The position numbers and the translations under genes are program-made. A stretch of DNA of 64,000 nucleotides from a virus (lineage: Duplodnaviria > Caudoviricetes), in IMG/VR virus record IMGVR_UViG_3300035208_003115; one strand, 5' to 3'. A model generated the notes under the pieces. It searched no databases and was not told the DNA's origin. It worked only from the letters and a program-made list of their open reading frames with translations. Positions 25,816-45,023 of the stretch are shown here, in pieces (position 1 is the first letter of the stretch; each line of letters starts with the position of its first letter).

Positions 25816-26625
25816 TTAGACTGATTTTATCTGATTCATGTACTTAGTTATATTCCCTAGAAGTTTGGTTCCCGGGGGAGACCAGATTAGGGTGGGAATT
25901 GGCGTTACCGCCGTAGAAGGTATCTGGAACATAAGCATTGGGTTCAAGTGCCAGGCTCCCATTACCCTGACATCCTGTATTTGTGAGGTTATATTAACTT
26001 TACCAGCTATAGAAACGCCATTTTGAGCACTAACTTCAACGCCATTGTTATGGTCGGCTACTAGTCTTACCTCATCTTCGCCAATATAAACGTGCGCAAC
26101 CGGATCATCAATTAGGAGAGTCGGGTCATCTGTTGTGACCTTATTATCTCCAATGAACTCTCTTGGGACAGGCCGGGGTGGCTTAACTGTTATAGACTGA
26201 CCCTGAGGATGTTTCCGAAGGTTAATTCCTGCAGTTAGAGACTTAGCCTCTTTTACAATTTTACCATCAACAGGAGTGGATTTCTTTGTTCCTGATGATC
26301 CAAAAATAGCCGAAGAGATTCCATATTCTATATTCGGGACCGGGGTTGCCTTGGGTATCAGCTCTACACAAATTGGACTCTTGGGATCACCATGAAGTAA
26401 CCCAATATATGAGCCAGCGTTAATGGGATAATGGAGTCCAGGAGTTGGCTTAAGCCGAGCCTCAAACGTTTCATTGCCCTTTGTCGCTCCGGCCTGCATG
26501 CGACAAATAGCTCTCGTCTGATCGGGACTTATACTGTCAATATATACGGTCGTCCCTCTAAAGGAACGTTCCATCTCCGTGCGAGCGATATCTTGAGTTG
26601 CTTTAAGCGTAGTCTTATTTATCAT
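25816..26625 (-). CDS. Putative baseplate spike (gpV/gp5-like)
   Basis: Position between hub and gp25-like gene; OB-fold-like N-terminus, short beta repeats at the C-terminus. Confidence 0.5.
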   Translation of the reverse strand: MINKTTLKATQDIARTEMERSFRGTTVYIDSISPDQTRAICRMQAGATKGNETFEARLKPTPGLHYPINAGSYIGLLHGDPKSPICVELIPKATPVPNIEYGISSAIFGSSGTKKSTPVDGKIVKEAKSLTAGINLRKHPQGQSITVKPPRPVPREFIGDNKVTTDDPTLLIDDPVAHVYIGEDEVRLVADHNNGVEVSAQNGVSIAGKVNITSQIQDVRVMGAWHLNPMLMFQIPSTAVTPIPTLIWSPPGTKLLGNITKYMNQIKSV

Positions 26626-29600
26626 AAATTCATTCCTGTAATGCTAGAATAGAACTCTTCTAGAGCTCCAGCTACTGTGTTAACGGACCCAGAGAGTCTT
26701 CTCCACTCACCGGCCATATTCTCCCATATCCCCCCGCGATGCGTAATGCCATCCAGACCAGCGTGGAAGGGCTTACCCATTAGAGAAAGTGGAGTAATCC
26801 GAAGTGGGCAGGCATAGTTGGGATCATCAATTCCTGCGAACATTTGGTAATAGGCAATAGGGCCTCCTACTGCCAAGGTTTTCATCATATTTAGGAATGA
26901 TACCTTTGTAAGAGCGGCCCAGGATTCTTTATTAATTAGAACCTTGGCAGCTCCCTTCGAACCATTGGCGACCATTCCGCCTGTTACTCCAGCTGTTGCT
27001 GCAAAGTTTCCCTTGGCTATCATCCAGTCTATTTCTGCTTCAAGACTTGATCCGGGTTTGGCTCTCATAATATTTTTGAGGGCGGCATTAACTTCCATCC
27101 CATTAGCCTCTGTTAGCTTAGATATCTGAGGGATAGATGCGTCCTTGAGGGAACGCGCTTTGTTGATTTCGGTAATGATTTTATATTTTGCATTATCTAT
27201 CTTTTTATCTGCCATAAACTTGAGAGTTCTACTACTAACCGCTTCTTTGGTGGCAACATCAAAAGTCTTGGCGATTGATTTATACTTACTGCCTACGAAT
27301 TTATACAGTTGGTTGCCAAGCGTCTTTCCCTTTTTAAACGCTTGGGCCGCAGCTTTATTAACAGCTTGTTTTGATAGAATAGAGGCCCCTGCTTGACCTC
27401 CTTTTGCGAGAGCCCCTGCTTGACCTATTCCTGGGACAACTAGAAGTGCCAACATAGCGACATCAAAGACCTCTTTAATAAGAGAGGCTGGACCCATTCC
27501 TTGACTGAGGATATCCAAATAAGCGTGTGGTTCGATGATGCTGACAAATCCGTTTTCGGCTGACATGACATGCGTTACAGATTTAACCTCTATGGGGCCG
27601 TACATCTTAGTATAATCATCGTGGATATAGATGACATCATATGGCTTAATCTCTGGATTCCCTAGGAGAACTAGGCGTCCTCCGTACATGTTTCTGACGC
27701 CTTCAGCGAGTATAGAGGTGGCATAATTTCTCGCCTGCTTGACCGTCTTAGCATTTTCAACCGGGATAGTGAGTTCGCGAGTAACCCTATCGTCTAGGGT
27801 TTCCCCTGCCTGTATTTGGAACTCATTATTCAGTTTATCTCCGAAGATAAGTTGAGGAAGGAATGGAGTATAGTAGTCCATAAAGTCATGGCGCTTATAC
27901 TTAACCTTGACCTGATTCCACATTCCTGTAAAGTTAGAACAAATCTTGTTATCAACGATATGCTCGTATCCGGAGGCAATATGGTAGTTTCTAAATCTCT
28001 TTTCAATGGGGCTATGACCGAATTCAGCTAGAACCTTCTGAAATTCCCCGCTGATATCAACGAGATTCTGTAATAAAATATTCCTAAAGACGGTGTGTGT
28101 CTTGAGGTCTGTCCTAAAGATGGGTCCAGAGAAAGAGATGCTACCATTATCTAGTTTCTTAATGGTGATTTCTCCTACCCGGTGATTAACATAAAAGTTA
28201 AACGGAATATGACCCTCGAAGCTAATCGAGTTTTTATTCTTTGTCTCGTCAGTAATCTGATTTAAATCCATCGGATTTCGACTAGATGTCGAGGTTGTTT
28301 TCTTGTCTCCTCCCGGAAGAAAGGTTCCCAATAGGAGTTGCCATATACTCGATAATTTGAACCAGCAGATAACAGCTAGAGGAGATTCAATTCCATACTT
28401 TTTGTATATCTTCTTCATTGGGCCGAGAAGACTTTTATCAAAGTCGGCCTGGTCCCCGATGAAAGGGATGTCCGTGGCTAGATTCTTTAGTTCTTCTTTA
28501 ACTTTTTTCTCATCTAGAATTAGGTCATACCTAGATAGAACGCCTTGAAGATTATCAAATAGGGCGACGTCCTTTTGGTCTATCCCCGTTGTCTGAATTT
28601 TCGCCCGAGATAGAGTGGCGTATACAGTTTGAACGTCAGTATCTCTATAGAAATCAAGGAGAGGGATAGTTCTTCCGCTAAGAGATTTAAGAATTGAGCT
28701 ACGAACAACTGGGTCGAGGTGATCTAGCATCTCTGATTTTAGTGGATCCGATGGCTGACTCTTAATAAGCTCTTTAGCTAAGCGTGCAATTTCTGCTTCG
28801 TATGGGTCGGTTTCTTTCTTGGCATAGATGGGGCCAGGACTTTCTTCTTTAGAATTAAGGCCGAAGTCGCGAGTGTCTGATTTTCTCTCGCTCTTTTGAG
28901 GTTCTTCTGTTCCTAGCTGGAACTGGATATTGCCAGTTGAACCATCTGAACCGATTGTGTTTAGGACATCAACAACTTTACAGTAGTCCATTAGCAGGCT
29001 CATGGTTCTGCCTTTGGCTCCCTCGGCGTGGTTCGCACGCCATTTAGCGAAGGCTTGATCAATCCGATCTTTGACCTTCATCCACTGGAGATAATTAAAC
29101 TCGGGTTTTTTGGCCTCTGGAGTTGCATCGTTGGCCATTTCCTCTTGAAACTTTTCTCTAACACTTTTGTTTGAATTCGGAGCTTTCTTATTGAGGCTTC
29201 TCCAACCTCCTCCTAAATCTGGAATTAGGTCGAGAGACAACTTCATATATTGTCTTGTGACTCCCAGATCCTGGGTATATTTATACCAGTCATCTGGACG
29301 GCCAAAGAAGACCGTTTCTCTGTCATCATACGGGACAACCTGGCAGATATAGCCGGGGTGAGCAGCCGCGATATCTTGAAGAGCATCCCACTTGGTCATG
29401 TTGTCAGCGTTATATGACTGTAGTAATCTCCATGTCCCGGGCTCTAATTCCTGATCGATATAAATGTTATCGTCAAAGGCTGGACCATCTATAAAGTCGG
29501 TGACCGTAGATGGAAGAATAGAGGCCTGGACAAGTCTGCCCAGATGTTTGACCTTAGAGTCTAGAAGCATCCACCAAATGAATGCTTTAGGAGGGCAAAT

Positions 29601-32600
29601 CCAGCCCAAGAAAGAACCAACGTTGGCCTCAGTAAATAATTCTGCGCCGTACGACTGGCAGATTATCTCGAATTTCTCGCCTCCGCCTACATCAGTAACA
29701 AAACCATTGAAGATAGTGGGCATGTCAGCGGGGTTCGCTTCATACCCCATCTTGATTTGAATCTGAGTTCCGGGCTGTAAGAAGAGAGATTTAATAGCCT
29801 TGTTAGTAAACGGGCTAGTTATTCTATCTTCACTGTTTCTTCTATCTGCAGCATGACTTTCTTTTGCAAACCTGGCCTGTAGATCCGTCAATGCTCCATC
29901 GTGGTTATTCAGGGATAGATGGACGACTGCTGACGGAGAAGCTTTTTCTTTATAGAACCGAATCGACTCGCATGACCTATAGTCGTAGAAGTTATCAAAT
30001 AGAAACCATTCCGGTGAATTCTCTTCCCGGAAGTATATCTTGTAAGTCGGATATGCCCGCGTCATGGAGAAATATTTAGGATTATTTAAGATCCCATTAC
30101 GAGCCTCAGATACGATATCCGGGATGGTTTTCTCGATGTCAACATTAAAGTCTTTGAATGAGGAGCGGAACATTCTATGTTCGTACTCTGCCTCTGCGAT
30201 AACAAGGGGAGACGTTTCAGAGCCAAACGCACCCATTGACTTGACGAGGCTATTAGATAAGAAGAGATCATTGAGACTTCTGAAGGTGCCAAAGTTTACG
30301 GGAGAGCTAGACTTAAGGAGTCCTTGCTTTCTTAAGGCTCTCGCCTGTTTATTGGCGGCCTCTTTCAGCTTATCAATAGACTTTTCGGCATCTGTTTTAT
30401 TAATAGTTTGCTTGTTTTGATCAGAGGAGTTAGTAGCAGTCTCTTCTTCTTTTCCGATAACATGAAATTCATTGGAAACATAATTGACTGTTCTTTCAAT
30501 GGCCATACATATCGAACTGGCTCCGGTCAAGCGACTTAGCGAAGAGGCGTCTGCGCTAACATTCTCCTCAATCGTTTTTGTGTCTTTGTGCGTTGAGCTA
30601 CCTATAAACGGGCTATATGATCTCATATAGAATGTGGGGTCTGTCATCAGAACCGGAGACTTTAGCGAACCGTTTGGGTTGCGTAGTAAGTTGCCGTCAT
30701 TATCTTCAAGCTGATATGCGAATGGAATACCCAAATCTGTGTAACAGGAAATATATACAGATCCGTCTATGATATCCTGGGGAAGATAGTCCCCAGTAAA
30801 TGAAGATCCCTTGTTTGTGATTCCGTATTGAAGAAGTGTTTCTCCACTATAATAATAGTCTCTATATTCCTCGCGGAGTTTGGCCGCCATATTCTTATCA
30901 TATCTTTTAATCATGACGTGATTTACTTCTTTAGCTGCCAGAACTGGGTCAACAAAATCTCCACCCCATTTAAAGTATTTACGGGCTATAGCTCCAATTT
31001 GAGACCATACGGCTGACGAAATTGATGACTTCGATATTGCTACTCCATTTTGGATTACACTAAAGTCAACCCCAACTCCGAATGTATGAGATGAGTTTTC
31101 AAAGTCTACTGCGGGGGTTCCATCAGCCCGTAGTTCTTCAGTCTTATCCCGGGGCCTCCAGGCAGATATCATTTCGAGATCAATCCCCAACGAGGAATTT
31201 ACTTCTTCCTTAAAACTATTGAATAGACTTAAGATGTCTGCTCGCAGAACGAAGTCGAGACCGAAACGAGAACGATATTCCGTAAAGACTTTTCCTCTCG
31301 CCGGGAGGACTTGTTCCCTAGAGGTTTTAATTCCCAGTAAGCCGAGCTCCCATCTTAGGAGATGAGGGCTACGAATCATCATTTCAAACCGGCGACAATC
31401 TCCATAGAGAATTGTTTGGACAGCGCCTGCCAGAAGAAAGGCTCTTCGGTTCTTATCTTTAGAGTCTTCAGTCCCTCTGTTTTGGGCATTCAGAGACTCA
31501 TAATCAAAGTCTGGATTTTTCTTTGCTTGAAGCATCATGAATACAAGAAACTTGGCCCATAGAGGGTGCGAGGTGAGGGCAGACTGTCCTGTCATCATCT
31601 TCCATATTTGGTTGTAGGCCTTACGACGACTAAAGTTAACGGTATCGACTCTCTTCCCATAGCCAGAAGCAATATCCCCTGCGCTCATATTCCCCTGATT
31701 GGGACGGTTAGGGTCAACGACCATGGGGGCATTTGGATTATCTTTCCCAATATATTCTCCGAAAAGAGTATCAATGCGGAGATCTGGCATCCCGGCAGCC
31801 GTATCATAGAGTGTTTTAGCTGCGGCTATTGCGATGGTCCCATGCAACAGGGCAAGCTTCTCTAGTGTACTTGCTGCACTTATAGCTTTCTGAATCTCCC
31901 ATTTCTCCCCTTCTTTTAGCCATCTAATAAAAGCATTTCTTACTAGACGAACCATGCTTGGAATTAGAATTGTTTCAGTGTACGATGGATTAATCTCGTC
32001 GAATGTAAACCGAACATCCTCATCTGTTTTCTGAGAACGATTATAGTCCCAGCGAGGGCCATAGAACTCAAGGATTCTAGTTAGTAGTTTCTTTTTGAAG
32101 GCCCTCTTATCTGTGAACCTAGAGTCGAGAGACTTGACAACCTCTGTTTGTTCGTGAAAGGTCCAGCTAACAATGAAAGTTCCTGGGTTTTCTGGGACAC
32201 TCTGTATATCCATCGTTCCGTTAACGACAGTAAATATACCGTTTAGGTTGACGACATCGTTGCTTACATAGGTAAGGTTCGACCCAGCATGTCTCATTTT
32301 GCTACGGGCGTCGGTCTCGATTGACTTATCGACTGCCGCTAGCTGTTTTACAATGGCTTCGTTTGAAGTAACGATAGACAACATAATGTCGGATGATCCA
32401 CCCCCGAGATATTGAGCGGTAGGAACCGGGGCAGATATTATTGGGAGGATAGAGGCGGGGTATTGTCTTCTGATAGTGATCCCATCGATGGTTGTAGTAT
32501 TGTTGTCCGCGATACTGTACAGTTTTATATATCTGTTCCCGACGTTCATTACAGGAAGATCATATAGGTCATCAATATTCTTAAGGATGATATTATTTAA

Positions 32601-33548
32601 ATCACTCGCCGAGATGGTGTTGGCTATCTCTATCCCGAGATGAGCACTTAAATCTTCTTTTAAATCCTTCTGGGAACCAACCCACCTGCCACTGCGTCGG
32701 CTCTTGTATGCTCCAATAGAAAGATCAAATGCTTCCATAATTGTAGTTACATGATATCCAATATGGAATGATTCTGTTGCATTGGCGGATCCCCAATCAT
32801 TCCCGACCGGTTTAACGGCGTCGCCATTTCTTAAAACGCTCGAAGCTGGATCGTTTCGGCTTATGAAATCATCATTTTTAGTAGCGGGCTCAGAGGCCCT
32901 AGCTGCGTCAGTTCGAGTTCCATCATCCTCTAGCTCGCCCGCAAACATAAAGCCGGCATCGACTGACTTAATTAATCCATCCGTATACTGTCTCCACAGG
33001 TTACTGTGTTCGATAGAACTAACGGGGATATCATAGACGGGTTCGCCCTTGCCGTTTAGGCCTTGCCGATAGAACTGCCACTCTTCTACGAGTGGCTTAG
33101 AGTTATACACGGTAAAGGCAATGCGAAGAGTGACCGTATCAGGGAGAGAAGGTTCAGTATTAAGAGTGTAGCCGTTGACGAGAATCGGGATATCTTTGTG
33201 TTGGACGTCTACGATTCCTGTGTTGTGCTCTACAATCCCATAAACAGTTTCGTTCCACATCGTAATAAATGGGGTTCTACGTAACATTGCTAGGATTTTT
33301 GCTAGCTTGCCATTTATTTGGCCAACACCAGAGAAGACGAGGTCCATATCAAATTGCCACATTCCTCGGCCCGTTTTGAGATAGTTGGCCCCGCGTTGGC
33401 GCATCGTCATCATATGGTCACTAAACTTAGGATTGTTGTAGTGAATATTAATTGGCGGGACATGTAGCCATACATGACCAATCCTAGTTGCGCCCGGAAG
33501 GTCTTTAGCATCAAATGTAAAGTTGGTTTGTTCTTTGGACGAAGCCAT
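26622..33548 (-). CDS. Giant baseplate hub protein with internal M15-family peptidoglycan peptidase
   Basis: gp27/gpD-like hub motifs (PGTQIQIKMGY, IFNGFVTDV, LLGNPEIKPYDVIYI...VKSVTH); internal SAWR...SSHTFGVGVD...WGGDF...EVNH zinc peptidase signature at ~30900..31250. Confidence 0.75.
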   Translation of the reverse strand: MASSKEQTNFTFDAKDLPGATRIGHVWLHVPPINIHYNNPKFSDHMMTMRQRGANYLKTGRGMWQFDMDLVFSGVGQINGKLAKILAMLRRTPFITMWNETVYGIVEHNTGIVDVQHKDIPILVNGYTLNTEPSLPDTVTLRIAFTVYNSKPLVEEWQFYRQGLNGKGEPVYDIPVSSIEHSNLWRQYTDGLIKSVDAGFMFAGELEDDGTRTDAARASEPATKNDDFISRNDPASSVLRNGDAVKPVGNDWGSANATESFHIGYHVTTIMEAFDLSIGAYKSRRSGRWVGSQKDLKEDLSAHLGIEIANTISASDLNNIILKNIDDLYDLPVMNVGNRYIKLYSIADNNTTTIDGITIRRQYPASILPIISAPVPTAQYLGGGSSDIMLSIVTSNEAIVKQLAAVDKSIETDARSKMRHAGSNLTYVSNDVVNLNGIFTVVNGTMDIQSVPENPGTFIVSWTFHEQTEVVKSLDSRFTDKRAFKKKLLTRILEFYGPRWDYNRSQKTDEDVRFTFDEINPSYTETILIPSMVRLVRNAFIRWLKEGEKWEIQKAISAASTLEKLALLHGTIAIAAAKTLYDTAAGMPDLRIDTLFGEYIGKDNPNAPMVVDPNRPNQGNMSAGDIASGYGKRVDTVNFSRRKAYNQIWKMMTGQSALTSHPLWAKFLVFMMLQAKKNPDFDYESLNAQNRGTEDSKDKNRRAFLLAGAVQTILYGDCRRFEMMIRSPHLLRWELGLLGIKTSREQVLPARGKVFTEYRSRFGLDFVLRADILSLFNSFKEEVNSSLGIDLEMISAWRPRDKTEELRADGTPAVDFENSSHTFGVGVDFSVIQNGVAISKSSISSAVWSQIGAIARKYFKWGGDFVDPVLAAKEVNHVMIKRYDKNMAAKLREEYRDYYYSGETLLQYGITNKGSSFTGDYLPQDIIDGSVYISCYTDLGIPFAYQLEDNDGNLLRNPNGSLKSPVLMTDPTFYMRSYSPFIGSSTHKDTKTIEENVSADASSLSRLTGASSICMAIERTVNYVSNEFHVIGKEEETATNSSDQNKQTINKTDAEKSIDKLKEAANKQARALRKQGLLKSSSPVNFGTFRSLNDLFLSNSLVKSMGAFGSETSPLVIAEAEYEHRMFRSSFKDFNVDIEKTIPDIVSEARNGILNNPKYFSMTRAYPTYKIYFREENSPEWFLFDNFYDYRSCESIRFYKEKASPSAVVHLSLNNHDGALTDLQARFAKESHAADRRNSEDRITSPFTNKAIKSLFLQPGTQIQIKMGYEANPADMPTIFNGFVTDVGGGEKFEIICQSYGAELFTEANVGSFLGWICPPKAFIWWMLLDSKVKHLGRLVQASILPSTVTDFIDGPAFDDNIYIDQELEPGTWRLLQSYNADNMTKWDALQDIAAAHPGYICQVVPYDDRETVFFGRPDDWYKYTQDLGVTRQYMKLSLDLIPDLGGGWRSLNKKAPNSNKSVREKFQEEMANDATPEAKKPEFNYLQWMKVKDRIDQAFAKWRANHAEGAKGRTMSLLMDYCKVVDVLNTIGSDGSTGNIQFQLGTEEPQKSERKSDTRDFGLNSKEESPGPIYAKKETDPYEAEIARLAKELIKSQPSDPLKSEMLDHLDPVVRSSILKSLSGRTIPLLDFYRDTDVQTVYATLSRAKIQTTGIDQKDVALFDNLQGVLSRYDLILDEKKVKEELKNLATDIPFIGDQADFDKSLLGPMKKIYKKYGIESPLAVICWFKLSSIWQLLLGTFLPGGDKKTTSTSSRNPMDLNQITDETKNKNSISFEGHIPFNFYVNHRVGEITIKKLDNGSISFSGPIFRTDLKTHTVFRNILLQNLVDISGEFQKVLAEFGHSPIEKRFRNYHIASGYEHIVDNKICSNFTGMWNQVKVKYKRHDFMDYYTPFLPQLIFGDKLNNEFQIQAGETLDDRVTRELTIPVENAKTVKQARNYATSILAEGVRNMYGGRLVLLGNPEIKPYDVIYIHDDYTKMYGPIEVKSVTHVMSAENGFVSIIEPHAYLDILSQGMGPASLIKEVFDVAMLALLVVPGIGQAGALAKGGQAGASILSKQAVNKAAAQAFKKGKTLGNQLYKFVGSKYKSIAKTFDVATKEAVSSRTLKFMADKKIDNAKYKIITEINKARSLKDASIPQISKLTEANGMEVNAALKNIMRAKPGSSLEAEIDWMIAKGNFAATAGVTGGMVANGSKGAAKVLINKESWAALTKVSFLNMMKTLAVGGPIAYYQMFAGIDDPNYACPLRITPLSLMGKPFHAGLDGITHRGGIWENMAGEWRRLSGSVNTVAGALEEFYSSITGMNL

Positions 33549-36500
33549 TATGTACCTAGTCTGAGTTGACGGTGATATTCATCTCGGAATATCTTAGCAT
33601 AATTTTGTTCACTTGAGTCATCACGGATGTTAATGCTGGCTTTGGCGGGACGCTTGTATTTGCTGGACAGGGCGTCAGCTAGATCTACGAACTTGCTATT
33701 ATGTTCACGCTGTGCCTCTTTTATTTTAACACGAACATCGTATGATTTTTCGGGCATTAATCTGACAGATCGTTGGCTTCTAGCTGCTACAACTGGATCG
33801 GGCTCATTTGTCTTAACATACCTGCCACTATCGTCCTTTTGTTCCCCTGAACGCTGCGCATTGCTGACAACCGTTATATTGCCTGGTTTGCGCATAGACA
33901 TTCCTACCCCAGCTAGAACTGCTCCTCCAATAGCCAAAGAGGTCCATCCTCTTCCCTGTCTAAGACCAGATACGTAACTTCCTACTGCCTCTCGAACAGC
34001 TCCTCCAATCTCTTGACCCGTAGATTTAGCAGCGTCTGCATAGGTTCGATTCTGTGCAGACTGTCTGGCTGCTGATTCAAATACTCCAGCCTTATGGAAT
34101 GCTCCTTCTACACTGCCTTGGGGGAACGATGTTTCCCCGGGGAGAAATGCTTCGAAGAGTTGAGCAATAGAGGCAGGGCCTCCTACCGATGTTGTCTTCT
34201 GCATTGCCGCGGTTATGCTATTTTGACCAGCCGTAAGGGATTCTAGAATATCTCTGGCAATAACGCTCTTTCTAGCGTTGGGGCCAAACATTTTCATATG
34301 GTCCGGGGTTAGAAGATCCATAAGCTTCATGGCCTTCTTTGTTGGATCGGACCCATATAGTATCTCGGACATATTTACAAACTGAGCGGAACCTTGAAGA
34401 TTTCTTTTGGCATTAATCTGTTCTTCGGCTAAGCCAAAAAGAACATTGCTTAGATTGGTGGAATATTCCTGAGTAAACTTGCCCCTCAATATATTCGAGG
34501 GATCAGTTCCCTTCATCATAGCGCCGGCAAATACCTTGAAAGCGGCGTTATGGGTTACACCAGTATTCCGGCCCTTGAGAATATTCGTCATTGCTACTTC
34601 AAAAGGAGTTTTGCTCTCAACTGCAGCTAAGTTAATTGGAGTGTCAGTTCGTATTAGCTTTTGAATAGCGGCATCTTCTGCTTCCTTAAATGCCGACTGC
34701 TTACGGTACCATGTTTCTTTTAACTCCTGCTGTACGTCCGCTCTCCCCATAAATTCAGACACAGTATTTCTTGGGTCAGCATCGAGATCTCCATGGATTA
34801 TAGATCCAGATCCCTGAGATAGAAGTTCATCGATCTTCTTCCCATAGTGACCCGCTGCAGTTATTTCGGGATTCATCAGCCACATACGAGACGAAGTCCA
34901 TCCTGCTGGGGCTCCTGGTGGACGCATCTGAGTGCTATAAAAGCCGCCAGATTGCTCTAGTGTCTTTTTTACAAAGCCAAGGTTTCTTTTACCAGTTGCC
35001 TGATGCATTATCTGCTTGGCTTTTTTAAGTGAAACGACATGGAAGCCGCCCAAATCACCTTTGAAAGTCGGATCTACGGCTGAGATTTGTCTGCGGATAA
35101 TAGCTTCCTGTTCGGCATTCAAGAAGCCCATCGTAGTACGAGTTCCCTTAAGACGGGTCTTAAGGACCATGTTTTCCATAAGCTTGTTTTTGCCAGATAA
35201 ACCCGCAAACTCATTAAGATATCTCTGGCCCGCTAACTGGATTGCAGTTCTATCTCCAGATGCGGTAGCTTTAATAACACCAAGTTTGGCCTTATTTACT
35301 TCACTGGCCCATGTTTTCCCTCCCGGTGTGGCATACATCGCGGATAGGTCTTGGCTAAGAAGCGGAAGCTGGGAATAGCTTCTGGTGACTCCTTCTCCAA
35401 GTGTAAAGTCAAAAGTAGATCCAAGAGGAAGCATCCATGTTTTATTACGGCCACCTTGAACTCCACTTGAAAGTCCCATTTTAGTAAGAGCGGTAGATAG
35501 TTGTTTGTCAAGCTCCGGATCGAAGAGGATATTGCCTGAGTGACCCTGAAAGGCCCCACCACTTATGGTTATATTTTTAGCAATGGCTGCCTGGAGATCC
35601 GAAGTTAAAGTTTCTGCTCCAGGAACCGGAGTTTTGCTTTGAAGATATTTGAGGATATTTCTAAACTCTTGACCCTCGGATGTAGACGCAATTTTCTCGG
35701 CTATGAGGCGTTCTTGAACTGTCATGCCGGCTTGCTTGAGTCCCATTAAATCTTGAACTCCAGCCTTAATGAATGGACCTTCTTTATTTAGATTTGTTTG
35801 ATCGAGGGCCTGGACATATACCGGGTGAGCTACCCCCTTAAGATTAACTCCCTCTAGAAGAGCAGTAACAGTCGCCCCATACTGGGACGGAAGAAGACCG
35901 GCGGCCCTGCGAACATGGCCAGCTTTGATTCCGAAGTTATCTGGGAATAGAAGTGTTCCATTAAGAGCTCTGACCATGGAGTCGGAACCCATTGCTCTAT
36001 TCTCTCGGTTAAGAGCATTGGCAAGTCTTTGGGCATTTACTAGACGTTTCTTGGGAGAGACAAATTGCGGATCTGTTAAATAGATTTCCGCGGCCTGATA
36101 GAGCGGAACCATCGTTCGAGCTTCAGAGCCTTTAGCCAGAGGAGCTAGAACAATATCGGTAGTAGCCGCTGTTCCCTTAAATGCCGAAGGAGAGTGAGCC
36201 GCCAATCCTTTTCTTAATTCAATAGATAGTTTCGCACCAACACCTAGTGCTTCTCTTTCCCCATAGTTGAGTCGAAGGTTTTTCCCCTCCTTGACTAAGG
36301 ACAGGGCAATATTATCTGTTCCTGGCGCAGTCTTTCCAAGATGCCGGAGAGCTTCGCGAGGAGTATATCCCTCGGCAATAAGAGCTTTAAAGTCTGCATC
36401 TTTTTCTAGACTTGCAGAACGGATAGCATTGATAACATCGTTGTCTATGGATGCGCCATGGATAAGTTTGTCGAGAAATCCCTTAGAAACATCAGAAGGA

Positions 36501-37393
36501 TTAAAGGCAATTGTTTTAGGTCTATATGAGTAATAACCAGATAAGGCATTGGGCCTAATCGCGAATGCGTCTCCGGCTAGGGCGGCAACTTGAGTTAAAT
36601 CTCCGCCGGCTCCAGGAGTTGCGTACTCCGCCATTCTCACTAGACTAGTATTATATGCTCCTGCTCTAAAGTTGGAACCCGGGATACTAGATGTATACCC
36701 GGGACGGGCCCCCGTGAGCATCTCATCAACGATTCCTTCGGCGACTTCTATTCCTCTCGGAGTCCACGATGCACTAGAAGTAGTCCCGATTCCAGGGCCA
36801 CTTTCCTGACCGATTGGCAGGAAGTCTAGGATGGTGGCATATTTTCGGACTTCTTCCTGGGTTCCTAGTCCCGGGTAGATTCCCATAAGATTTTTGCCAC
36901 TATAAATATACTGGCCAGCTTTACTTCCTACTCCACTAGTTCCGCCACCACGAGAAATAATCTCATTGGCCCATTCCTCGTGTTGCTCCATAGATGGGAA
37001 TGGAACATTGGCCATCTTCTGGGCCCAGCTTATGTCCTCGACGCTAGACGAGAAAGCATATCTTCCTGCCCTACCTGTCAGCGAGCTAATAGATGGCATC
37101 TTGAGGGTGAGGTCTTTTGCCTCTCTTAGGAAGCCTTTTAGGCTAGAACCCCTCTTAGAAGGGTCGGTTATGCCCGCTATCTGCCCCAAACGCCTATTAA
37201 TATACTGAGGAAGGCTATATAGGCCTCCCTCATAGTAAAACTGCCTAGAAGTCCTTCTAAGGCCATTGTATATAACCGTATTATTGGGCCCCTCTATGGG
37301 GAGTCCACTATACGGATTAACCGCAAGGCCCGGATGTTCCTTGTTTAGATAGTCAATGACCGAGCGGTCGTATGGAGAATATTTAGGAGACAT
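33548..37393 (-). CDS. Putative single-subunit two-barrel (double-psi beta-barrel) RNA polymerase, probably virion-associated
   Basis: Collinear matches to cellular RNAP motifs: GVGAKLSIELRKG...DIVLAPL (beta), GKNKLMENMVLKTR, MRPP, HGDLDAD, LKGRNTG (beta'). Confidence 0.7.
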   Translation of the reverse strand: MSPKYSPYDRSVIDYLNKEHPGLAVNPYSGLPIEGPNNTVIYNGLRRTSRQFYYEGGLYSLPQYINRRLGQIAGITDPSKRGSSLKGFLREAKDLTLKMPSISSLTGRAGRYAFSSSVEDISWAQKMANVPFPSMEQHEEWANEIISRGGGTSGVGSKAGQYIYSGKNLMGIYPGLGTQEEVRKYATILDFLPIGQESGPGIGTTSSASWTPRGIEVAEGIVDEMLTGARPGYTSSIPGSNFRAGAYNTSLVRMAEYATPGAGGDLTQVAALAGDAFAIRPNALSGYYSYRPKTIAFNPSDVSKGFLDKLIHGASIDNDVINAIRSASLEKDADFKALIAEGYTPREALRHLGKTAPGTDNIALSLVKEGKNLRLNYGEREALGVGAKLSIELRKGLAAHSPSAFKGTAATTDIVLAPLAKGSEARTMVPLYQAAEIYLTDPQFVSPKKRLVNAQRLANALNRENRAMGSDSMVRALNGTLLFPDNFGIKAGHVRRAAGLLPSQYGATVTALLEGVNLKGVAHPVYVQALDQTNLNKEGPFIKAGVQDLMGLKQAGMTVQERLIAEKIASTSEGQEFRNILKYLQSKTPVPGAETLTSDLQAAIAKNITISGGAFQGHSGNILFDPELDKQLSTALTKMGLSSGVQGGRNKTWMLPLGSTFDFTLGEGVTRSYSQLPLLSQDLSAMYATPGGKTWASEVNKAKLGVIKATASGDRTAIQLAGQRYLNEFAGLSGKNKLMENMVLKTRLKGTRTTMGFLNAEQEAIIRRQISAVDPTFKGDLGGFHVVSLKKAKQIMHQATGKRNLGFVKKTLEQSGGFYSTQMRPPGAPAGWTSSRMWLMNPEITAAGHYGKKIDELLSQGSGSIIHGDLDADPRNTVSEFMGRADVQQELKETWYRKQSAFKEAEDAAIQKLIRTDTPINLAAVESKTPFEVAMTNILKGRNTGVTHNAAFKVFAGAMMKGTDPSNILRGKFTQEYSTNLSNVLFGLAEEQINAKRNLQGSAQFVNMSEILYGSDPTKKAMKLMDLLTPDHMKMFGPNARKSVIARDILESLTAGQNSITAAMQKTTSVGGPASIAQLFEAFLPGETSFPQGSVEGAFHKAGVFESAARQSAQNRTYADAAKSTGQEIGGAVREAVGSYVSGLRQGRGWTSLAIGGAVLAGVGMSMRKPGNITVVSNAQRSGEQKDDSGRYVKTNEPDPVVAARSQRSVRLMPEKSYDVRVKIKEAQREHNSKFVDLADALSSKYKRPAKASINIRDDSSEQNYAKIFRDEYHRQLRLGT

Positions 37394-40300
37394 AAGCGTT
37401 GGCTAACATGCCCTTTAAGTTGGCCCGGATATAATTGCGGGCTTCAGTATCTGTCGAGTATTTAATGTCGAAATCAAGTTCTATTCCTGGGGTTCCAGCG
37501 GCTTCGTCAATATATAGCTCATAGTTATTGTATCCTTGCGCACCAATAATATCACTTATTTCCTGCTTGATAAGCTGAGGATTGCCCTTGGTGCTAAATG
37601 GGTCAATTAGGGGCACATATGGTTTCCGCTTTAAGGCTTCTCCCTGTGTCTGCCACATATTGAAATCGTGCTGATCAAATCCTTCTTGGGTAACGGTTTT
37701 ATACTGAACATCTGAAAGGTTGACCGCAGGGTGCCAGCCTATCCACGATTCTCCCGGAAGATAATGATCCTGAAAATACTTCTCTAAGTTAGGGTTGGGG
37801 TCTACATCTTCTCCCCATTTGGCTTGTAGGAATCGTCTCATCCCCAGTGGGACCTTGGAAGCTATCTCATTTCGCTCTTCTGCTGGTGCCGTCATGAATG
37901 CATTAAAGAACTCACGCTGCTTTGTTGGAAGGGCTCTCATGATAGAGGCGAAGTCACCGTGAACATCGGCTCCGTACATCGTAGACTTATACTTTTCTCT
38001 AAAGCGAAGGGCGGCTCTAGCGAAACGAGTCGAGCTCTCGATGGCAGATTCAGCGGCATCCTCGGTCCACTTTTGCCGACTTAGAACTTGAAGAGCAGCA
38101 GAGAGTCCCCTCTTTTCTTCTCTAATCTTTTTACGGTTTTCAGGATCTTCTTCCTGAAGTTGAGCCAGGCTCTGTTCACCATACTTTTGAGTTATGGCTT
38201 CTTTAACTTCTTTGCGAGCGCGACGAGATGCCTCAAGAGTTTGAATAACCTTGGCCGGGTCAATCCCTTCTTTTTCAATAGCAAGATCCCTGGAATAAGT
38301 GTAGAGCCTGCGATATTTTAGATACTCGAGCATGTCATAGTACTGGTCGATATCCCATTGCCGTTTGCGATATTCGGGTATGGCCGCTCCCCAGTTACCT
38401 GCACCAGCCATGGCTCCACCAACTAAGCCCGCCGCTCCGAGAACTGTCTTGGCTACCTTTGAAGAGCCGAAGAGAGTAGCAACGAATCCTCCAACAAGAC
38501 CAGCTCCGACCGGGCCCATTCCTGCTATTTTGTGACCAATTGGCATAATAAAGTCACGGTATGGATGAGACCAGTCGGCTGAATCACGGCCATATAGTTG
38601 TGTTCTTTCCCACGACTCTAATGCACTCCGGTTTTGTAAAAACTTAGTATGTAGAGGAGTGTCAGCGTGGGAGAAGGTTTCCCATAAAGAACCAACAGCT
38701 CTTTCGAGCGGGTCATATTTAACCTTGTGATTTAGCGGAGAGTATACTTCTCCTGGCCCGGTTCTTTTGAACTCTCCCATCTTTTTCTTAATTAGGCTCT
38801 GATTAAGATCTCCGATAACGACAGGAACAGTGGGCAAGACAGTTGATGTCTTGGTGCGATATCTTGGGTCATCAAGAACCTGGATGCTGAGGCTCTTACC
38901 CCTTTCTAGATAGCTTTCTAGATATGACTCTCCCTTCCCTGTTATTCCTTTAACTCCAGCGAGGTCATATATCGTCCCCTTATCGCCCTCAACGGTAAAG
39001 CGACCCGCACCGAGATACTTTTCTACTGTAATTCTTTCTGAAGCTGTGTCCCCCGTAGTGAATGTTCGAGGCTTGAAGGAGTAACGCTTCTTCATTTGCG
39101 TTACTTCTTTCTTTAGATATTTCCTCTCTGCATCTGCTTCCGGAGTAAGCATTCCGGCCTTGGACATAGCCATGATATACTGTTGGCTAAATCTATATTG
39201 GCGACTATATGGGGCTACTCCACCGAGAATACGATATGTATCCATCATTGAGTAGTCTTCGTATTTACCTGCAGTAGCTCCAAGGTTTGCCATTCCTAGT
39301 TGTCTGGCAGCCTCAGTGATTCCCTCTCCTGGCTTATAGAATTTTTCATAACCTGAACCAGGAAGACGGATTTCTCCTAGTTCAACCTTGGAATACGGGT
39401 CTCCTTGGTGGAAATTGGTAAAGTAATCGCTCCCAGGCATCCACGCAGGCATTGTATTGGGGATGGGATTAACCAGTTCTATTTGACGTCTACGGTGAGG
39501 AATGAAACGCCGGAATAGTTCTGTCGTTCCAAATGGATCTCCAATATTAAGATCCCAGTAAGCTCTTTCTGCTCCCGCGATACGGTTTGCTGATTCTAGT
39601 TGGGGCTGTGTGAAAAAGTCTTGGTTGCCAGAAAGGCGAGAGTTCGCAGAGTTGACCATGAATCCATAGATACCGAGATATTCGGTTCCCCTATAGATTT
39701 GTTCACCGACCCTTCCTTTAATCGAGTCAGGAGCAATGGCGGCATCAGGAGGTAGCCCGCCAAGCCCAGCCGCGACACCATACGGTAACTGCTGCTCTGT
39801 TTCACCGGGGATATACTCTCCATTATATTTCTGAGGAAAGACAAAATCGTTATAGCCTCCGCCGGATCCAACTCCGGTTCCGCCTGGACCAGGTCCAATT
39901 CCTCCACCTGGAGTGATACCTCCAGGTCCGGGACCACCAACTCCATAGTATCCTGGTCGGCCGCCAGATCCATAAAGATATTCCGAGTGCATCATCATTG
40001 GTGGAGCTAGAAGTCCCCCAATCATTGGCCCCAAGAAGGGGAGGTCCTGTGCTCCAGATGTAACTATGGGGTAGGGTCTATCTTCATAGTGCTTGATTGC
40101 ATAGTGGTAAGGGTCAGCATAATTAGACCAGTATTCAAACTCTGATCCATATTGGACATCGGTAAACTCTGCGTGAGCCTTGTGTTTTTTATACCAATTA
40201 GGAGCGAAGTATTTGGGCTTCGTTCCTTCAAAGGGTGTTCCTCCAAACATCCACCAACGACCTGACCGAACCGGGACTCTCTTGTGTCCAAAGTATTCAT

Positions 40301-42368
40301 CATAGTAGTCGCTTCCCTCCATTGTGAGGGCTCGAGTTGATGCTCCTCCTAGGAAAGCAGAAGCGGCTAATCCCGAGAAGAACCCAGTCTTTCCTCCATA
40401 CGCTCCCGCAACAAGAGGAATCCCCATTCCGCGAATTAGAGACATACCAGAAGACGACGTAATTCCCGGCATTAGTTCTTCCAGGTATTTGGCCATATCC
40501 GTAATGCCGAGGGTATCTCTTAAATAAGCACTCCCCATATTAAATCCGGTGGCAGTATCAGCTAGGAGGTCACTGGGACCATATCCAAAAACTCCTCTAG
40601 TTAAATCATTCCCCGCAGAGACCAACTGATAGGAGGCATATAGGGGGAGGAATCTTTTGAAGAACATCTTCCAGACAACATCTGCAGCAGAATGTGTGGT
40701 TGCTGGATTAAAGTTGCCAAGACCAATGTCTTCCATAAGACGGGTCGGACGATTGAATAACCAAAAGGCAGTAGAGCCTGGCATGTCATGCTGCGGGACA
40801 AAAGCAAATGCTGTTTTAGACTGGAACTGTTCACCGCTTTTCTTTTTAAAGTTCTTAGATACAGCAGTAAAGACATCTTTGCCAGATGTAGAAGGCTTAA
40901 GTTCTTCGAACTCAGCCGTTCCGAGAGTTGCCTTATACATTGATTTAATGGCAGATAGAAGACCTCCCTTACCCTTGCGGTTGATGATCGGATGGGCGGC
41001 TTTTTCCCACCGAGAGGGATTTTCTGCAAAACCTGTTTTATGGAGAAACGGAATATCCATTTCGAGGGCGTTTAGTGTCTTCTGCCACCATTTATCATTC
41101 GGGGCATTGAACTTATATCCTCCCGTGTATTGGCGTTTGCGCGCTGTCTCTCCAAATACAGTTTCGTGATATATCGGATTAGTTCCCTTTATTCTCTTGC
41201 CCCTTATGTCTTTGGGGAATTCATAGCTCCCGGCCTCGATAAGGGAACCCTTGCCAATCTGTTTCCCGCTTGCAATATCAAATAACTTGCCTCCAACAAA
41301 TGCCGCTCCTTCTTTCCCAGCAGTTACTCCTGGGCCGATAGGTGCTCCGGCATTGAACTTGTGGAACTGAGTTCCTTGTTCTAGGGCTCCAATCCATTCG
41401 TCGGGCCTGAATAGTTTTATTGGGTTGTAATTAAAAATGGGGAGGTGAAAGTTATTCGTGAAACCGAGTATAGTATTAGATACCAGTTTCTTGGGTGTAT
41501 AGGCATTAAGATTTAGAATTCTGTTGGATACAGTGTCGAACATTACTCCCTTACCGAGACCCACGGAGGAGAAGTCTACACCTGCATTCCTAACTGCGGT
41601 TAGGCTGTCGATTGGACGACCGAGTCTAATCGCATCGGCGATAGTAGCTGAGCGGAGCCCATTCACCACTTCGAGATTAGTAATCCCATGTTTCTTGAAT
41701 AGAGTATTAACGGCCTGTTCGGTTGCCGTTCCCTTTAGGTCTACGTTACTAATCTCTTTTTGGATCCGGGAGATCATCCCTAAGTGACTTTGAACGGGAT
41801 ACTTGGCGGGCGCATTACTAAAAACATTTTGGGCTTGGTTGAGAGTCTTCTCAAACCTTGAGGCAAATCCTCCTATATTATTTAGTTGGGTTTCTTCTAC
41901 CGTCTTGGTGAAAGAAGAATACCATGGCCTAAATTGTGAGTCCATTCTAGCGACAGAGCGAGCCAGATATGGAGCGAGAGCTTTCCCCCCATAGTAGAGG
42001 GAACCCAAACCCGCCGCTGATTCTAGGAGACGAGAACTGAGAGATTTCTCTTCCCCAGATACAGCTTGTCTTTTTGTTTCGAGAGAACTATATATCCTGG
42101 CCGTTCCATAGGCGGCTCCACCCGCAAGTGCAGCCCCCATAACACTAAGGGTGGGGTTCTTGGAACGAGCGGCAGCATACCACGTGAGCCCAAGAATACC
42201 AGCTGTGGTTGTTGCCCCAATCCCGAGCTGTTTTAGCTGACGGGACTCTGCTTCTTCTGTACTAAGTTGTTCGCCTTCGCTGAATCGATTATTACGTAAG
42301 AATCCAGTAAGAGCACCTAGAGAAGTAGCAGCTAAACCTTGTGTAAGGAAGCTCTGTGGAATAGGCAT
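37383..42368 (-). CDS. Tape measure-like/ejected virion protein
   Basis: Directly follows the tail chaperones; 1661 aa, Gly/Ala-rich with several hydrophobic segments and a central Gly/Pro linker. Confidence 0.65.
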   Translation of the reverse strand: MPIPQSFLTQGLAATSLGALTGFLRNNRFSEGEQLSTEEAESRQLKQLGIGATTTAGILGLTWYAAARSKNPTLSVMGAALAGGAAYGTARIYSSLETKRQAVSGEEKSLSSRLLESAAGLGSLYYGGKALAPYLARSVARMDSQFRPWYSSFTKTVEETQLNNIGGFASRFEKTLNQAQNVFSNAPAKYPVQSHLGMISRIQKEISNVDLKGTATEQAVNTLFKKHGITNLEVVNGLRSATIADAIRLGRPIDSLTAVRNAGVDFSSVGLGKGVMFDTVSNRILNLNAYTPKKLVSNTILGFTNNFHLPIFNYNPIKLFRPDEWIGALEQGTQFHKFNAGAPIGPGVTAGKEGAAFVGGKLFDIASGKQIGKGSLIEAGSYEFPKDIRGKRIKGTNPIYHETVFGETARKRQYTGGYKFNAPNDKWWQKTLNALEMDIPFLHKTGFAENPSRWEKAAHPIINRKGKGGLLSAIKSMYKATLGTAEFEELKPSTSGKDVFTAVSKNFKKKSGEQFQSKTAFAFVPQHDMPGSTAFWLFNRPTRLMEDIGLGNFNPATTHSAADVVWKMFFKRFLPLYASYQLVSAGNDLTRGVFGYGPSDLLADTATGFNMGSAYLRDTLGITDMAKYLEELMPGITSSSGMSLIRGMGIPLVAGAYGGKTGFFSGLAASAFLGGASTRALTMEGSDYYDEYFGHKRVPVRSGRWWMFGGTPFEGTKPKYFAPNWYKKHKAHAEFTDVQYGSEFEYWSNYADPYHYAIKHYEDRPYPIVTSGAQDLPFLGPMIGGLLAPPMMMHSEYLYGSGGRPGYYGVGGPGPGGITPGGGIGPGPGGTGVGSGGGYNDFVFPQKYNGEYIPGETEQQLPYGVAAGLGGLPPDAAIAPDSIKGRVGEQIYRGTEYLGIYGFMVNSANSRLSGNQDFFTQPQLESANRIAGAERAYWDLNIGDPFGTTELFRRFIPHRRRQIELVNPIPNTMPAWMPGSDYFTNFHQGDPYSKVELGEIRLPGSGYEKFYKPGEGITEAARQLGMANLGATAGKYEDYSMMDTYRILGGVAPYSRQYRFSQQYIMAMSKAGMLTPEADAERKYLKKEVTQMKKRYSFKPRTFTTGDTASERITVEKYLGAGRFTVEGDKGTIYDLAGVKGITGKGESYLESYLERGKSLSIQVLDDPRYRTKTSTVLPTVPVVIGDLNQSLIKKKMGEFKRTGPGEVYSPLNHKVKYDPLERAVGSLWETFSHADTPLHTKFLQNRSALESWERTQLYGRDSADWSHPYRDFIMPIGHKIAGMGPVGAGLVGGFVATLFGSSKVAKTVLGAAGLVGGAMAGAGNWGAAIPEYRKRQWDIDQYYDMLEYLKYRRLYTYSRDLAIEKEGIDPAKVIQTLEASRRARKEVKEAITQKYGEQSLAQLQEEDPENRKKIREEKRGLSAALQVLSRQKWTEDAAESAIESSTRFARAALRFREKYKSTMYGADVHGDFASIMRALPTKQREFFNAFMTAPAEERNEIASKVPLGMRRFLQAKWGEDVDPNPNLEKYFQDHYLPGESWIGWHPAVNLSDVQYKTVTQEGFDQHDFNMWQTQGEALKRKPYVPLIDPFSTKGNPQLIKQEISDIIGAQGYNNYELYIDEAAGTPGIELDFDIKYSTDTEARNYIRANLKGMLANAYVS

Positions 42369-43464: not shown

Positions 43465-44367
43465 TTACAGCGGTGGTAACGGCGGTAAATCATTGCTATT
43501 ATCAGGTTTTAGTATAAACCGTGAAGGCACTCTTGTCAATGGAGAATCTAAGCCACGAGCGATAAAGCTATATACTTCCTGAATTGGTTCCCCAGTTGTA
43601 GCAGTCTGGAGAGCGTGCCCTGTTATGTGGACACTATTCAATATTTTGGCCGTATGGCTACTTATCCCTTCATCTTCTACGGGTCTTTCCTTGGCATAGT
43701 TTCCGAATGTTATTAAGACGTCAAATGGAGGTAGGTTATCTGGGGGAATAGTCGAATACTGCTCTTCCGGAGCATCACCTGCTCCCCAGAAGTATTGTTC
43801 GAGAAGATTTGCCTTGACACTGAAGTCTAACTCGTTTAACGAGTTATCGGTATCACCTGGGATATTAGTAAGCGGGCCATTAGGCCCTAGTGTTTTAAGA
43901 GAATTTCTCTTGTTATAGATATCGTCTAGAAAGCGCGCAAACTCATCGTGATCAATAGATCCAGGGACTCCGGGCCCCCCATCTTTAGACATAACTTGAC
44001 TATGTCTCAGGTATTCCGCGATAGCCATATTAAGATAGTTTGTATGAGTATAATTCATGGAAAAGGCACCGTTTATGAGCTGAGCACCTTTAGCAACCAT
44101 GTCAAACTTCTGAGACTTATATCCATAGAATGGGCGCTTAGTCTGCGTCATCTCGTATTGAATCATGGAGATATCAGATAACCATATATCACCCAGGAAG
44201 ATCGCGACCTGGCTTCCACAGAAATAGTCAGTAGAGTATCGTTCTATAAGGTTGTTATTAAGAGATCGATCTTCGAGAGCAGAGTTTCTATGAGGAGCCT
44301 CGGGACCGTTACGAAGAAACAAAGTGTTTCTTTTAAAGAGATCATCTAGATAGTTGTCGATTCCCAT
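43465..44367 (-). CDS. Tail tube-family protein 3 (tube initiator-like)
   Basis: YFCGSQV...I-x-Y...PFYGY...LPPFDVLITFG...EVYSFIAR, homologous to the tube gene. Confidence 0.65.
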   Translation of the reverse strand: MGIDNYLDDLFKRNTLFLRNGPEAPHRNSALEDRSLNNNLIERYSTDYFCGSQVAIFLGDIWLSDISMIQYEMTQTKRPFYGYKSQKFDMVAKGAQLINGAFSMNYTHTNYLNMAIAEYLRHSQVMSKDGGPGVPGSIDHDEFARFLDDIYNKRNSLKTLGPNGPLTNIPGDTDNSLNELDFSVKANLLEQYFWGAGDAPEEQYSTIPPDNLPPFDVLITFGNYAKERPVEDEGISSHTAKILNSVHITGHALQTATTGEPIQEVYSFIARGLDSPLTRVPSRFILKPDNSNDLPPLPPL

Positions 44368-45023
44368 TAGATATGCCCCGCAACTATCCGACCTGATCCA
44401 GAATCAAATTTGAATGCAGTATCGAGAACCAAAAGACCCGAATCTCGGATTGGCCCGCCCCCAAGACTCGGATACATCACATCTATATCCTCCGCCACAA
44501 AGCTATGAACCGATTCTGTAAAGATATCGTTAATAGACATGGTTTGACTTTCGTCAACCAGCCTAATTCCATAGACGTTTAGCTGAGCCTGATGTCCGTA
44601 TTCATTAATAAATACACAACTAACATCAAATGGAGTCATCTGGTCGCCCAGAAGAGAGTAACCCCGCTCTCCTAAGCTCATATCTAGCTTGGCCTTATGC
44701 TGAGCAACCTGCCACAAAGCATATCTATCAAATATCGTGAAGATCATCGTGCCGGCAATAGTTCTAGGCCCCGCGGTGAATCCTCTGGGATAAGTGAATC
44801 CCAAGGCTCTTACGGGGAATCTTTCTCTGTGGATTGAATAGGTAAGGGTAGATAGATTTCCAAAAGTAGTAGGAGCCTGTCCATCAGTATGAATAACAGC
44901 TCGCATATCACATCCCGAGAACGAGTTATTACGACGAGCATACTTCCACGAGGAGGGTTGTGGAAATAGATCGCTCTGAGCATTTCTAATGCTGTTTGCT
45001 AAATCATCAAACCATTTGGCCAT
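44367..45023 (-). CDS. Tail tube-family protein 2
   Basis: SFSGCDM...YSIHRE...RTIAGTMIFTIFDR...PFDV...MSINDI, clearly paralogous to 45121..45768. Confidence 0.7.
   Translation of the reverse strand: MAKWFDDLANSIRNAQSDLFPQPSSWKYARRNNSFSGCDMRAVIHTDGQAPTTFGNLSTLTYSIHRERFPVRALGFTYPRGFTAGPRTIAGTMIFTIFDRYALWQVAQHKAKLDMSLGERGYSLLGDQMTPFDVSCVFINEYGHQAQLNVYGIRLVDESQTMSINDIFTESVHSFVAEDIDVMYPSLGGGPIRDSGLLVLDTAFKFDSGSGRIVAGHI

Follow-up and report, generated by a model that had tools for sequence, protein, structure and literature searches.

A probable single-chain two-barrel RNA polymerase of a previously undescribed family encoded in the tail operon of an uncultured, contractile-tailed jumbo-type phage

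The 64,000-nucleotide stretch of DNA analyzed here (the window) comes from the IMG/VR virus record IMGVR_UViG_3300035208_003115 (Duplodnaviria; Caudoviricetes), and carries between two giant tail genes an open reading frame (ORF) for a protein of 1281 amino acids (aa), hereafter the target. We conclude that this gene probably encodes a single-chain two-barrel DNA-dependent RNA polymerase (RNAP) of a previously undescribed family, for which we propose a mechanism of delivery through the tail. The parts of this reading differ in strength: judged from the predicted models, a two-barrel polymerase fold with an intact active site is very probable and activity as a DNA-dependent RNAP is probable, while gene context tips the balance modestly towards carriage of the protein in the virion and its injection. 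An earlier note on this DNA had proposed an RNAP from five short motifs and a possible trigger-loop stretch (AEEQINAKR); the ORF is real and contains all six (Table 1).

Structures were predicted by using AlphaFold2 without templates from 13-row alignments, separately for residues 1-1150 (predicted local distance difference test score (pLDDT): 73.1; predicted template modelling score (pTM): 0.65) and for residues 230-600 (pLDDT: 78.3). Foldseek search of the model of residues 230-600 gave 209 matches at E-values of 1e-3 or better, and the top 50 were all RNAP beta or Rpb2 chains (best E-value: 9e-7). For the model of residues 1-1150, the top 50 Foldseek matches in PDB were all RNAP beta' chains, with weak E-values of 1.5e-3 and up, and the neighbours of the same model in the ESM Atlas were all Rpb1/beta' families. 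These beta-only and beta'-only matches argue for a beta-like N-terminal half and a beta'-like C-terminal half of the target, the order found in single-chain two-barrel enzymes.

The model of residues 1-1150 was also aligned against 48,161 PDB representatives by using VIA-align, which is independent of Foldseek; the top 16 were all two-barrel polymerases, including those of AR9, phiKZ, vaccinia and African swine fever virus (ASFV) and maize RDR2. Stand-alone double-psi beta-barrels (DPBBs) aligned by VIA-align over 86 of 86 residues to residues 747-882 (root-mean-square deviation (rmsd): 2.4-2.7 A), and superposed on residues 249-530, the segment with a conserved Lys pair, as well (rmsd across both segments: 2.4-3 A). 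The double-psi barrels that the earlier note had named beforehand as a check are thus present in the predicted structure, as recognized by Foldseek, by VIA-align and through the stand-alone barrels. On convergence of the motifs in space, a further check that the earlier note had named, single superpositions on QDE-1 span both barrels (441-473 residues, rmsd 5.7-7.9 A), and the models suggest a canonical arrangement of the two. Foldseek and VIA-align alignments to beta' pair model residues 581-1103 with beta' residues 22-1356 at ~10-13% identity. The crAss-like gp66 structure (6VR4) was not among the best 50 structural matches, which does not exclude similarity to it.

Within the models, the insert between the two halves of the beta-like barrel (DPBB-B; residues ~300-360) is predicted as four short helices and not as a flap/SBHM domain. 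The sequence GKNKLMENMVLKTR lies just before the beta'-like barrel (DPBB-A), after which a bridge helix and a trigger loop follow at the level of the predicted fold. The target ends 176 residues past the polymerase core, and this tail includes its top hydropathy window, GWTSLAIGGAVLAGVGMSM, with a Kyte-Doolittle value of 1.29 over 19 residues, under the strict transmembrane cut-off of 1.6.

Conservation was judged in a 15-row alignment of the family, among those members that cover each column. Down to 22% identity, K388, K395, R426, D548, R824, P826, G831, D869, D871, D873, G945 and K996 are invariant, and K940 and T944, which precede G945, are nearly so. A DxDxD motif is expected 0.085 times in a protein of the target's length and composition, and exactly one occurs in each family member, in a homologous column. 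Both lysines and all three Mg-binding aspartates that the earlier note described as kept are invariant in every member that covers them (13 of 13 and 14 of 14), the latter having been a second check set beforehand. We regard the hairpin with K388 and K395 as the counterpart of the two active-site lysines of beta, and R426 may correspond to the Arg of the beta 'PSRMN' motif.

The motif comparison on which the proposal was built stands for the RxP motif, the triad, the Lys pair and G945, and is weaker than implied elsewhere: H867, G868 and R747 are poorly conserved, and the Asp of the DIVLAPL stretch is kept in 8 of 11 members. The 'unusual Gly-to-Ala' exchange noted in the triad carries no meaning, because the position between the second and third Asp varies freely (A/Q/D/K/N/S/I). 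With both barrels predicted and recognized, the triad invariant and the beta-like part preceding the beta'-like part, the reading as a single-chain two-barrel RNAP gains support overall.

Table 1. Positions of the target, its motifs and predicted elements, and neighbouring genes in the window
Feature	Positions	Strand	Description
Target ORF (P0001)	33548..37393	minus	1281 aa, open throughout; predicted single-chain two-barrel RNAP plus C-terminal anchor module
DPBB-B, residues ~249-530	35804..36649	minus	beta-like double-psi barrel (predicted); K388, K395, R426; short helical insert
GAKLSIELRKG...DIVLAPL	36137..36238		motif
GxKxxxxxxK(G/A/T) hairpin, K388 + K395	36206..36238	minus	invariant in 13/13 covering members; model strands 388-391 and 394-399
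R426, directly after the D-I-V-x-x-P-L stretch	36116..36118	minus	invariant in 13/13
Inter-barrel connector, residues ~571-745	35159..35683	minus	predicted clamp-like element
GKNKLMENMVLKTR	35153..35194		motif
DPBB-A, residues ~747-882	34748..35155	minus	beta'-like double-psi barrel (predicted), preceded by GKNKLMENMVLKTR; holds R824-x-P826
MRPP, R824	34922..34924		motif (positions of R824)
HGDLDAD	34775..34795		motif
D869-L-D871-A-D873	34775..34789	minus	predicted metal-binding triad; unique per protein, invariant in 14/14; loop before last barrel strand
Predicted bridge helix, residues 930-961, K940-x-x-x-T944-G945	34511..34606	minus	32-residue model helix; G945 invariant in 15/15
LKGRNTG	34559..34579		motif
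Trigger-loop-like element, residues ~975-1013	34355..34471	minus	helix, disordered loop 996-1003 (pLDDT <50), helix; K996 invariant in 15/15
AEEQINAKR	34403..34429		possible trigger-loop stretch
Gly/Ala-rich hydrophobic segment GWTSLAIGGAVLAGVGMSM, residues 1149-1167	33893..33949	minus	strongly conserved
C-terminal domain, residues 1168-1281	33551..33892	minus	best conserved part of the family; proposed tail/hub anchor
1661-aa gene upstream of target	37383..42368	minus	homolog of 0305phi8-36 ORF145 and ME3_35
2308-aa gene downstream of target	26622..33548	minus	baseplate hub homolog
Terminase	58260..60080	minus	
Major capsid protein	50391..51653	minus	
Tail sheath	45786..47357	minus	
Three paralogous tube-position genes	45121..45768, 44367..45023, 43465..44367	minus	directly after sheath

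An exhaustive phmmer scan of 1.84 billion cluster representatives yielded 13 representatives of the target family and IMG/VR added 2, which makes a family of ~15 sequences, all metagenomic, which share 22-51% identity with the target and, where complete, have a length of 1118-1305 aa. The target had no match in Pfam, in PHROGs (including crAss-like gp66), among PDB sequences (phmmer) or in 50,697 GenBank phages (tblastn). Pfam searches with all 13 members at E-values up to 10 found no relevant family (HMMER filters may drop very weak matches), and a profile of the family against PDB sequences returned chance matches only (E-values of 0.1 or worse). Neither an alignment-seeded word search, which found no further members, nor the ESM Atlas feature search, which gave no usable match, extended the family. 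A search for longer, fused forms of the target family found none, which is weak evidence. This is very probably a previously undescribed sequence family.

The window is a 64-kb block of minus-strand structural genes, transcribed in the order terminase, major capsid protein, sheath, three tube-like paralogs, two small genes at the chaperone position, 1661-aa gene, target and 2308-aa gene; the last of these, which has lysin-related regions, is followed by a 269-aa gene, gp25-like and Baseplate_J-like genes, many genes for large virion proteins and finally a collagen-repeat fibre. The same order (sheath, three tube genes, two small genes, ~1650 aa, target, ~2200 aa, 269 aa, baseplate) was found in every relative examined. 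The start of the target overlaps the 3' end of the 1661-aa gene by 11 nucleotides, and the 2308-aa gene begins within the stop codon of the target (TAATG). The 1661-aa protein matches ORF145 of Bacillus phage 0305phi8-36 (blastp: 1.3e-76), a virion protein identified by mass spectrometry (GenBank record). The 2308-aa protein matches 0305phi8-36 ORF147 (tblastn: 1e-13; blastp: 8e-19) and ME3_37 of Acinetobacter phage ME3, has endolysin and tail matches in PHROGs, and is homologous to hub proteins of related jumbo phages as well. ORF146, annotated as a hypothetical tape measure, separates ORF145 from the hub ORF147 in 0305phi8-36. Since the target lies between homologs of ORF145 and ORF147, sequence similarity of its neighbours places it in the tape-measure slot, directly before the hub homolog.

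The earlier note was thus right about a separate gene beside the hub of a contractile-tailed phage, and mistaken in taking the upstream 1661-aa gene for the tape measure, as that gene is a homolog of ORF145 and not of the assigned tape measure ORF146. CheckV estimates on the contigs of relatives (for example 106 kb at 49% completeness) imply genomes of ~220 kb, which is jumbo size, and we conclude that the source phage is a jumbo-type, contractile-tailed myovirus with the target in its late tail operon.

Further features of this operon were recorded alongside. The best PHROG match of the three tube-position paralogs is phrog_9206, labelled 'major head protein'; their position, and the analogy to the tail tube and its paralog in 0305phi8-36 (ORF140/141), suggest that this label is wrong. 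At the end of the window (1..6378, minus strand), an ORF of more than 2126 aa with ~12 stretches of collagen triple-helix repeats (Pfam Collagen, E-value 1e-88) is cut off, and is presumably a giant tail fibre. Gly/Ala-rich hydrophobic segments, which are typical of ejected proteins that enter or cross the host membrane, are found in both giant neighbours of the target too (near both ends of the 1661-aa protein and at residues 2020-2048 of the 2308-aa protein). BLAST of the C-terminal region of the target (from residue 1091) against these two neighbours detected no common domain, and BLAST of the 2308-aa protein against P23-45 gp96 gave no match.

For the mechanism, we propose that the beta-like barrel would supply K388, K395 and R426 and the beta'-like barrel the Mg-binding triad D869/D871/D873, and that the conserved hydrophobic segment and C-terminal domain (residues 1149-1281) may form a separate module. 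The enzyme would be made late, built into the tail or ejection apparatus via this C-terminal module, and released into the host together with the DNA or before it, where it could transcribe the first phage genes independently of host RNAP; for later genes, host RNAP might be redirected by a phage sigma factor. The argument for carriage is that an RNAP made only together with late tail proteins would be of use mainly if it entered the next cell with the virion, as the RNAPs of N4, phiKZ, crAss-like phages and P23-45 do.

Contigs of relatives were searched for other transcription genes. A sigma-70-family factor of 299 aa (Sigma70_r2, E-value 1.3e-15; G001:C1:102610-102813, minus strand) is encoded in one relative, whose homolog of the target has 36% identity, and the ORF adjoining the sigma gene (G001:C1:102821-105862) encodes a 1013-aa protein with a PDIDVD motif that looks like DnaE. 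A second RNAP was not found in the IMG/VR contigs of relatives by using Rpb1_2, ME3_309, family paralogs or a scan for ORFs with DxDxD, which is uninformative at their completeness of 15-49%. Searches of the same contigs for a T7-like RNA_pol also found none, and the control was likewise without a match.

Several points weigh against a tail-delivered RNAP. The family is not linked to any known RNAP by a sequence method (Pfam, PHROGs, PDB profile or hhalign); in hhalign comparisons with E. coli beta and beta' and with gp96 (residues 1-1200), each as a single sequence, it gave E-values of 0.14-0.66, which are not significant, and the beta' match (family 673-700 to beta' 239-266), collinear as it is with the structural alignment, proves nothing alone. 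The phage is uncultured and every member of the family is metagenomic. The window holds structural genes only, and so gives no view of early genes or of candidate promoters. 0305phi8-36 ORF146, in the same slot, is without DxDxD. Finally, the predicted clamp-like element would make the folded 1281-residue protein too bulky for the tail tube, and storage or ejection would therefore require unfolding or another location.

Among alternative explanations, the one that survives best is an active two-barrel polymerase with another job: RNA-dependent RNA synthesis as in QDE-1 and RDR2, synthesis of replication primers, DNA synthesis as in PolD, or transcription by a non-virion RNAP that is merely encoded in the tail operon. 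We consider this unlikely.

Less probable still, and in our judgment quite improbable, is an exapted polymerase fold, that is, a structural tail, tape-measure-slot or ejection protein that no longer makes RNA. It would fit a gene that lies between those of two virion or hub proteins, where 0305phi8-36 has its presumed tape measure, and in which conservation is highest in the C-terminal hydrophobic segment and domain and not in the core. However, the three Asp, the two Lys, the Arg, the bridge-helix Gly and the trigger-loop Lys are all invariant at 22-51% identity, which argues for selection on catalysis, and a purely structural role would not fix DxDxD while surrounding positions vary freely.

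The least credible alternative is an artefact, in which chance motifs and an AlphaFold model biased to the polymerase fold would disguise an unrelated large tail protein: the shallow 13-row alignments, the whole-model Foldseek E-values of ~1e-3 and the lack of a sequence-profile link to any RNAP family are in its favour, but the agreement of two separate models and of two separate search methods makes it very unlikely, with the two segments matching only the two different large subunits in the correct order, an exhaustive search independent of Foldseek concurring, stand-alone DPBBs superposing at 2.4-3 A exactly on the Lys-pair and Asp-triad segments, and the motifs invariant and collinear in all homologs. 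A single-chain RNAP remains the preferred reading of the target.

Foldseek search of the target model against BFVD (predicted viral structures) gave four strong matches: a "minor tail protein" of an uncultured siphovirus (E-value 1e-14), an unnamed protein (8e-14), a protein of Acinetobacter phage ME3 (9e-9) and one of Microcystis phage MaMV-DC (1e-6). In ME3 (vB_AbaM_ME3), the 1603-aa hypothetical protein ME3_36 (L030:25173-29984; record positions 33172-37983) is encoded between the homolog of ORF145 (ME3_35) and the hub (ME3_37), and has SREPAQG...GGDHDQD at residue 1217 and a hydrophobic C-terminal segment. The matched segment is 802 residues long, and this length makes ME3_36 the probable source of the ME3 match; it is likely a distant, same-slot RNAP-like protein of an A. 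baumannii jumbo phage.

Genes directly before the hub were also found in Bacillus phages vB_BauM_KLEB27-3 (gp034, L050:4082-11386, 2434 aa, "structural protein"), vB_BceM_WH1 (gp095, L051:4906-12453, 2515 aa, "virion structural protein") and Edson (PV796108, 93203-96637). All three contain NRYPTIN...ADYDGD or ADHDGD in their C-terminal ~1100 residues, which we take to resemble closely NRAPTLH...NADFDGD of beta', together with a hydrophobic segment near the C-terminus and a target-like C-terminal module. By these motifs, they appear to be tape-measure-slot proteins in which the C-terminal part is a two-barrel RNAP module.

The hidden Markov model (HMM) of the family matches the same-slot proteins of KLEB27-3 (E-value 1.4e-3, in the RxP-to-triad region of gp034) and WH1 (3e-4). 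The C-terminal module of KLEB27-3 gp034 also matches the family HMM at that of the target, with a score of 10.8 compared with a maximum of 4.6 in 150 shuffles, and hhalign of the family against KLEB27-3 plus WH1 gave an E-value of 0.008 over 188 columns, with the RxP motif, triad, bridge helix and trigger-loop lysine aligned. These profile links are individually weak and collinear. The look-alikes differ from the target in their length (1603-2515 aa), with N-terminal extensions of ~600-1300 aa, and have no BLAST similarity to the target family. The C-terminal module of ME3_36 scored no better than shuffled controls (150 shuffles), and neither the ME3 nor the MaMV-DC genome, searched in full, had a match to the family HMM. 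The C-terminal end of 0305phi8-36 ORF146 was considered as a further candidate, as it resembles the target module by eye (RKP, YxVxVK, NIxDD), and was rejected on an HMM score of 0.4, which 14 of 150 shuffles equalled or exceeded.

The proteins of ME3, KLEB27-3, WH1 and Edson are annotated only as hypothetical or structural, and none is described as a polymerase in the literature searched; a 2026 review of jumbo phages makes no mention of them, and in a comparative study of 2021, the only RNAPs listed are those of phiKZ-like phages and of two YonO-like cases (PMC7824862). We suggest tentatively, and with slightly less than even confidence, that two-barrel RNAPs in the tape-measure slot form a wider unrecognized class in 0305phi8-36-like jumbo myoviruses, including ME3, KLEB27-3, WH1 and Edson, in which infection would start with a tail-delivered RNAP; that ME3 would have a YonO-like enzyme elsewhere as well, as P23-45 has a virion and a non-virion RNAP; and that the association of RNAP with the tape measure would be old or recurrent and not peculiar to one Thermus siphovirus.

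Other two-barrel-like genes were noted in these cultured phages, outside the slot. ME3_309 (L042:4454-6850, minus strand; 798 aa), with a beta-like stretch (GLKAVTKGKP) and ...HVRNPS at its end, is probably the second ME3 match in BFVD (798 residues). ME3_307 (L042:2115-3116, minus strand) begins with ...SDVDGD, and between the two lies ME3_308 (L042:3575-4306, minus strand), a 243-aa Cys-rich protein. By its sequence, the ME3_307-309 region resembles a YonO-like RNAP gene into which a mobile gene has been inserted, in which case ME3 would, like P23-45, encode two two-barrel RNAPs, one in the tail slot and one outside the tail genes. In MaMV-DC, ORF82L (L041:21653-32335, record positions 66652-77334, minus strand) encodes a 3560-aa hypothetical protein with GDFDGD at residue 2537, and lies outside the tail module. 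For the related phage Ma-LMM01, all transcription was assumed to depend on host sigma70 (PMC5780444).

What is new here is the sequence family and the genomic arrangement; the kind of enzyme is already known. Phages encode few two-barrel RNAPs, to our knowledge, and these have diverged extremely; the evolution of transcription enzymes has become clearer with each new family. The only tail-linked two-barrel RNAP in the literature searched is P23-45 gp96. If our reading is true, the target would represent a second, unrelated-looking tail-linked family, encoded in the tape-measure slot as a compact stand-alone gene and with a clamp, and tail delivery of RNAP would be a more general strategy. A recurrent giant "hypothetical" or "structural" gene beside the hub would gain a function, and the view that jumbo phages outside the phiKZ group, two exceptions apart, encode no RNAP would be revised (PMC7824862). 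The relatives in culture (ME3, KLEB27-3, WH1) make the reading testable.

Compared with cellular RNAP, the target shares with beta a collinear Lys pair, D-I-V-x-x-P-L stretch and Arg, and with beta' a collinear series of GK...K/R, RxP, DxDxD and a K...(T/S)G bridge helix. It differs in being one chain of ~1100 residues, in place of two subunits totalling ~2750, and in being without the flap, the alpha and omega partners and lineage insertions. Tape measure proteins are like the target only in position and in the C-terminal hydrophobic segment, as its model is a globular alpha/beta polymerase fold and not a long helical ruler. QDE-1, RDR2 and their YonO-like phage relatives (PF05183) are set apart from it by the missing Pfam RdRP match (none in any of the 13 members at E-values up to 10) and by a triad without the glycine of DxDGD; moreover, the target is in a tail operon and is not an early gene such as orf99 of 0305phi8-36.

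The two RNAPs of Thermus phages were compared as well. Of the non-virion enzyme (P23-45 gp64 and P74-26 gp62; PDB 8f5m), gp62 is a pre-early gene product (PMC10770324) with about half the target's size, is absent from virions and lacks the C-terminal hydrophobic/anchor module, and no sequence similarity between it and the target was detected. P23-45 gp96 (PDB 8h2m/8h2n) is a virion two-barrel RNAP fused to the tape measure, described in 2024 as a "previously unsuspected association" (PMC10770324). The target has no detectable sequence similarity to gp96 (hhalign E-value 0.39) and is a separate 1281-aa gene without the long ruler part, in a contractile-tailed jumbo-type phage and not a siphovirus; its triad is DLDAD where that of gp96 is DFDGD, and its model has a clamp-like element where gp96 is flat and clamp-less. 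Like gp96, it is encoded at the tape-measure position of the tail module.

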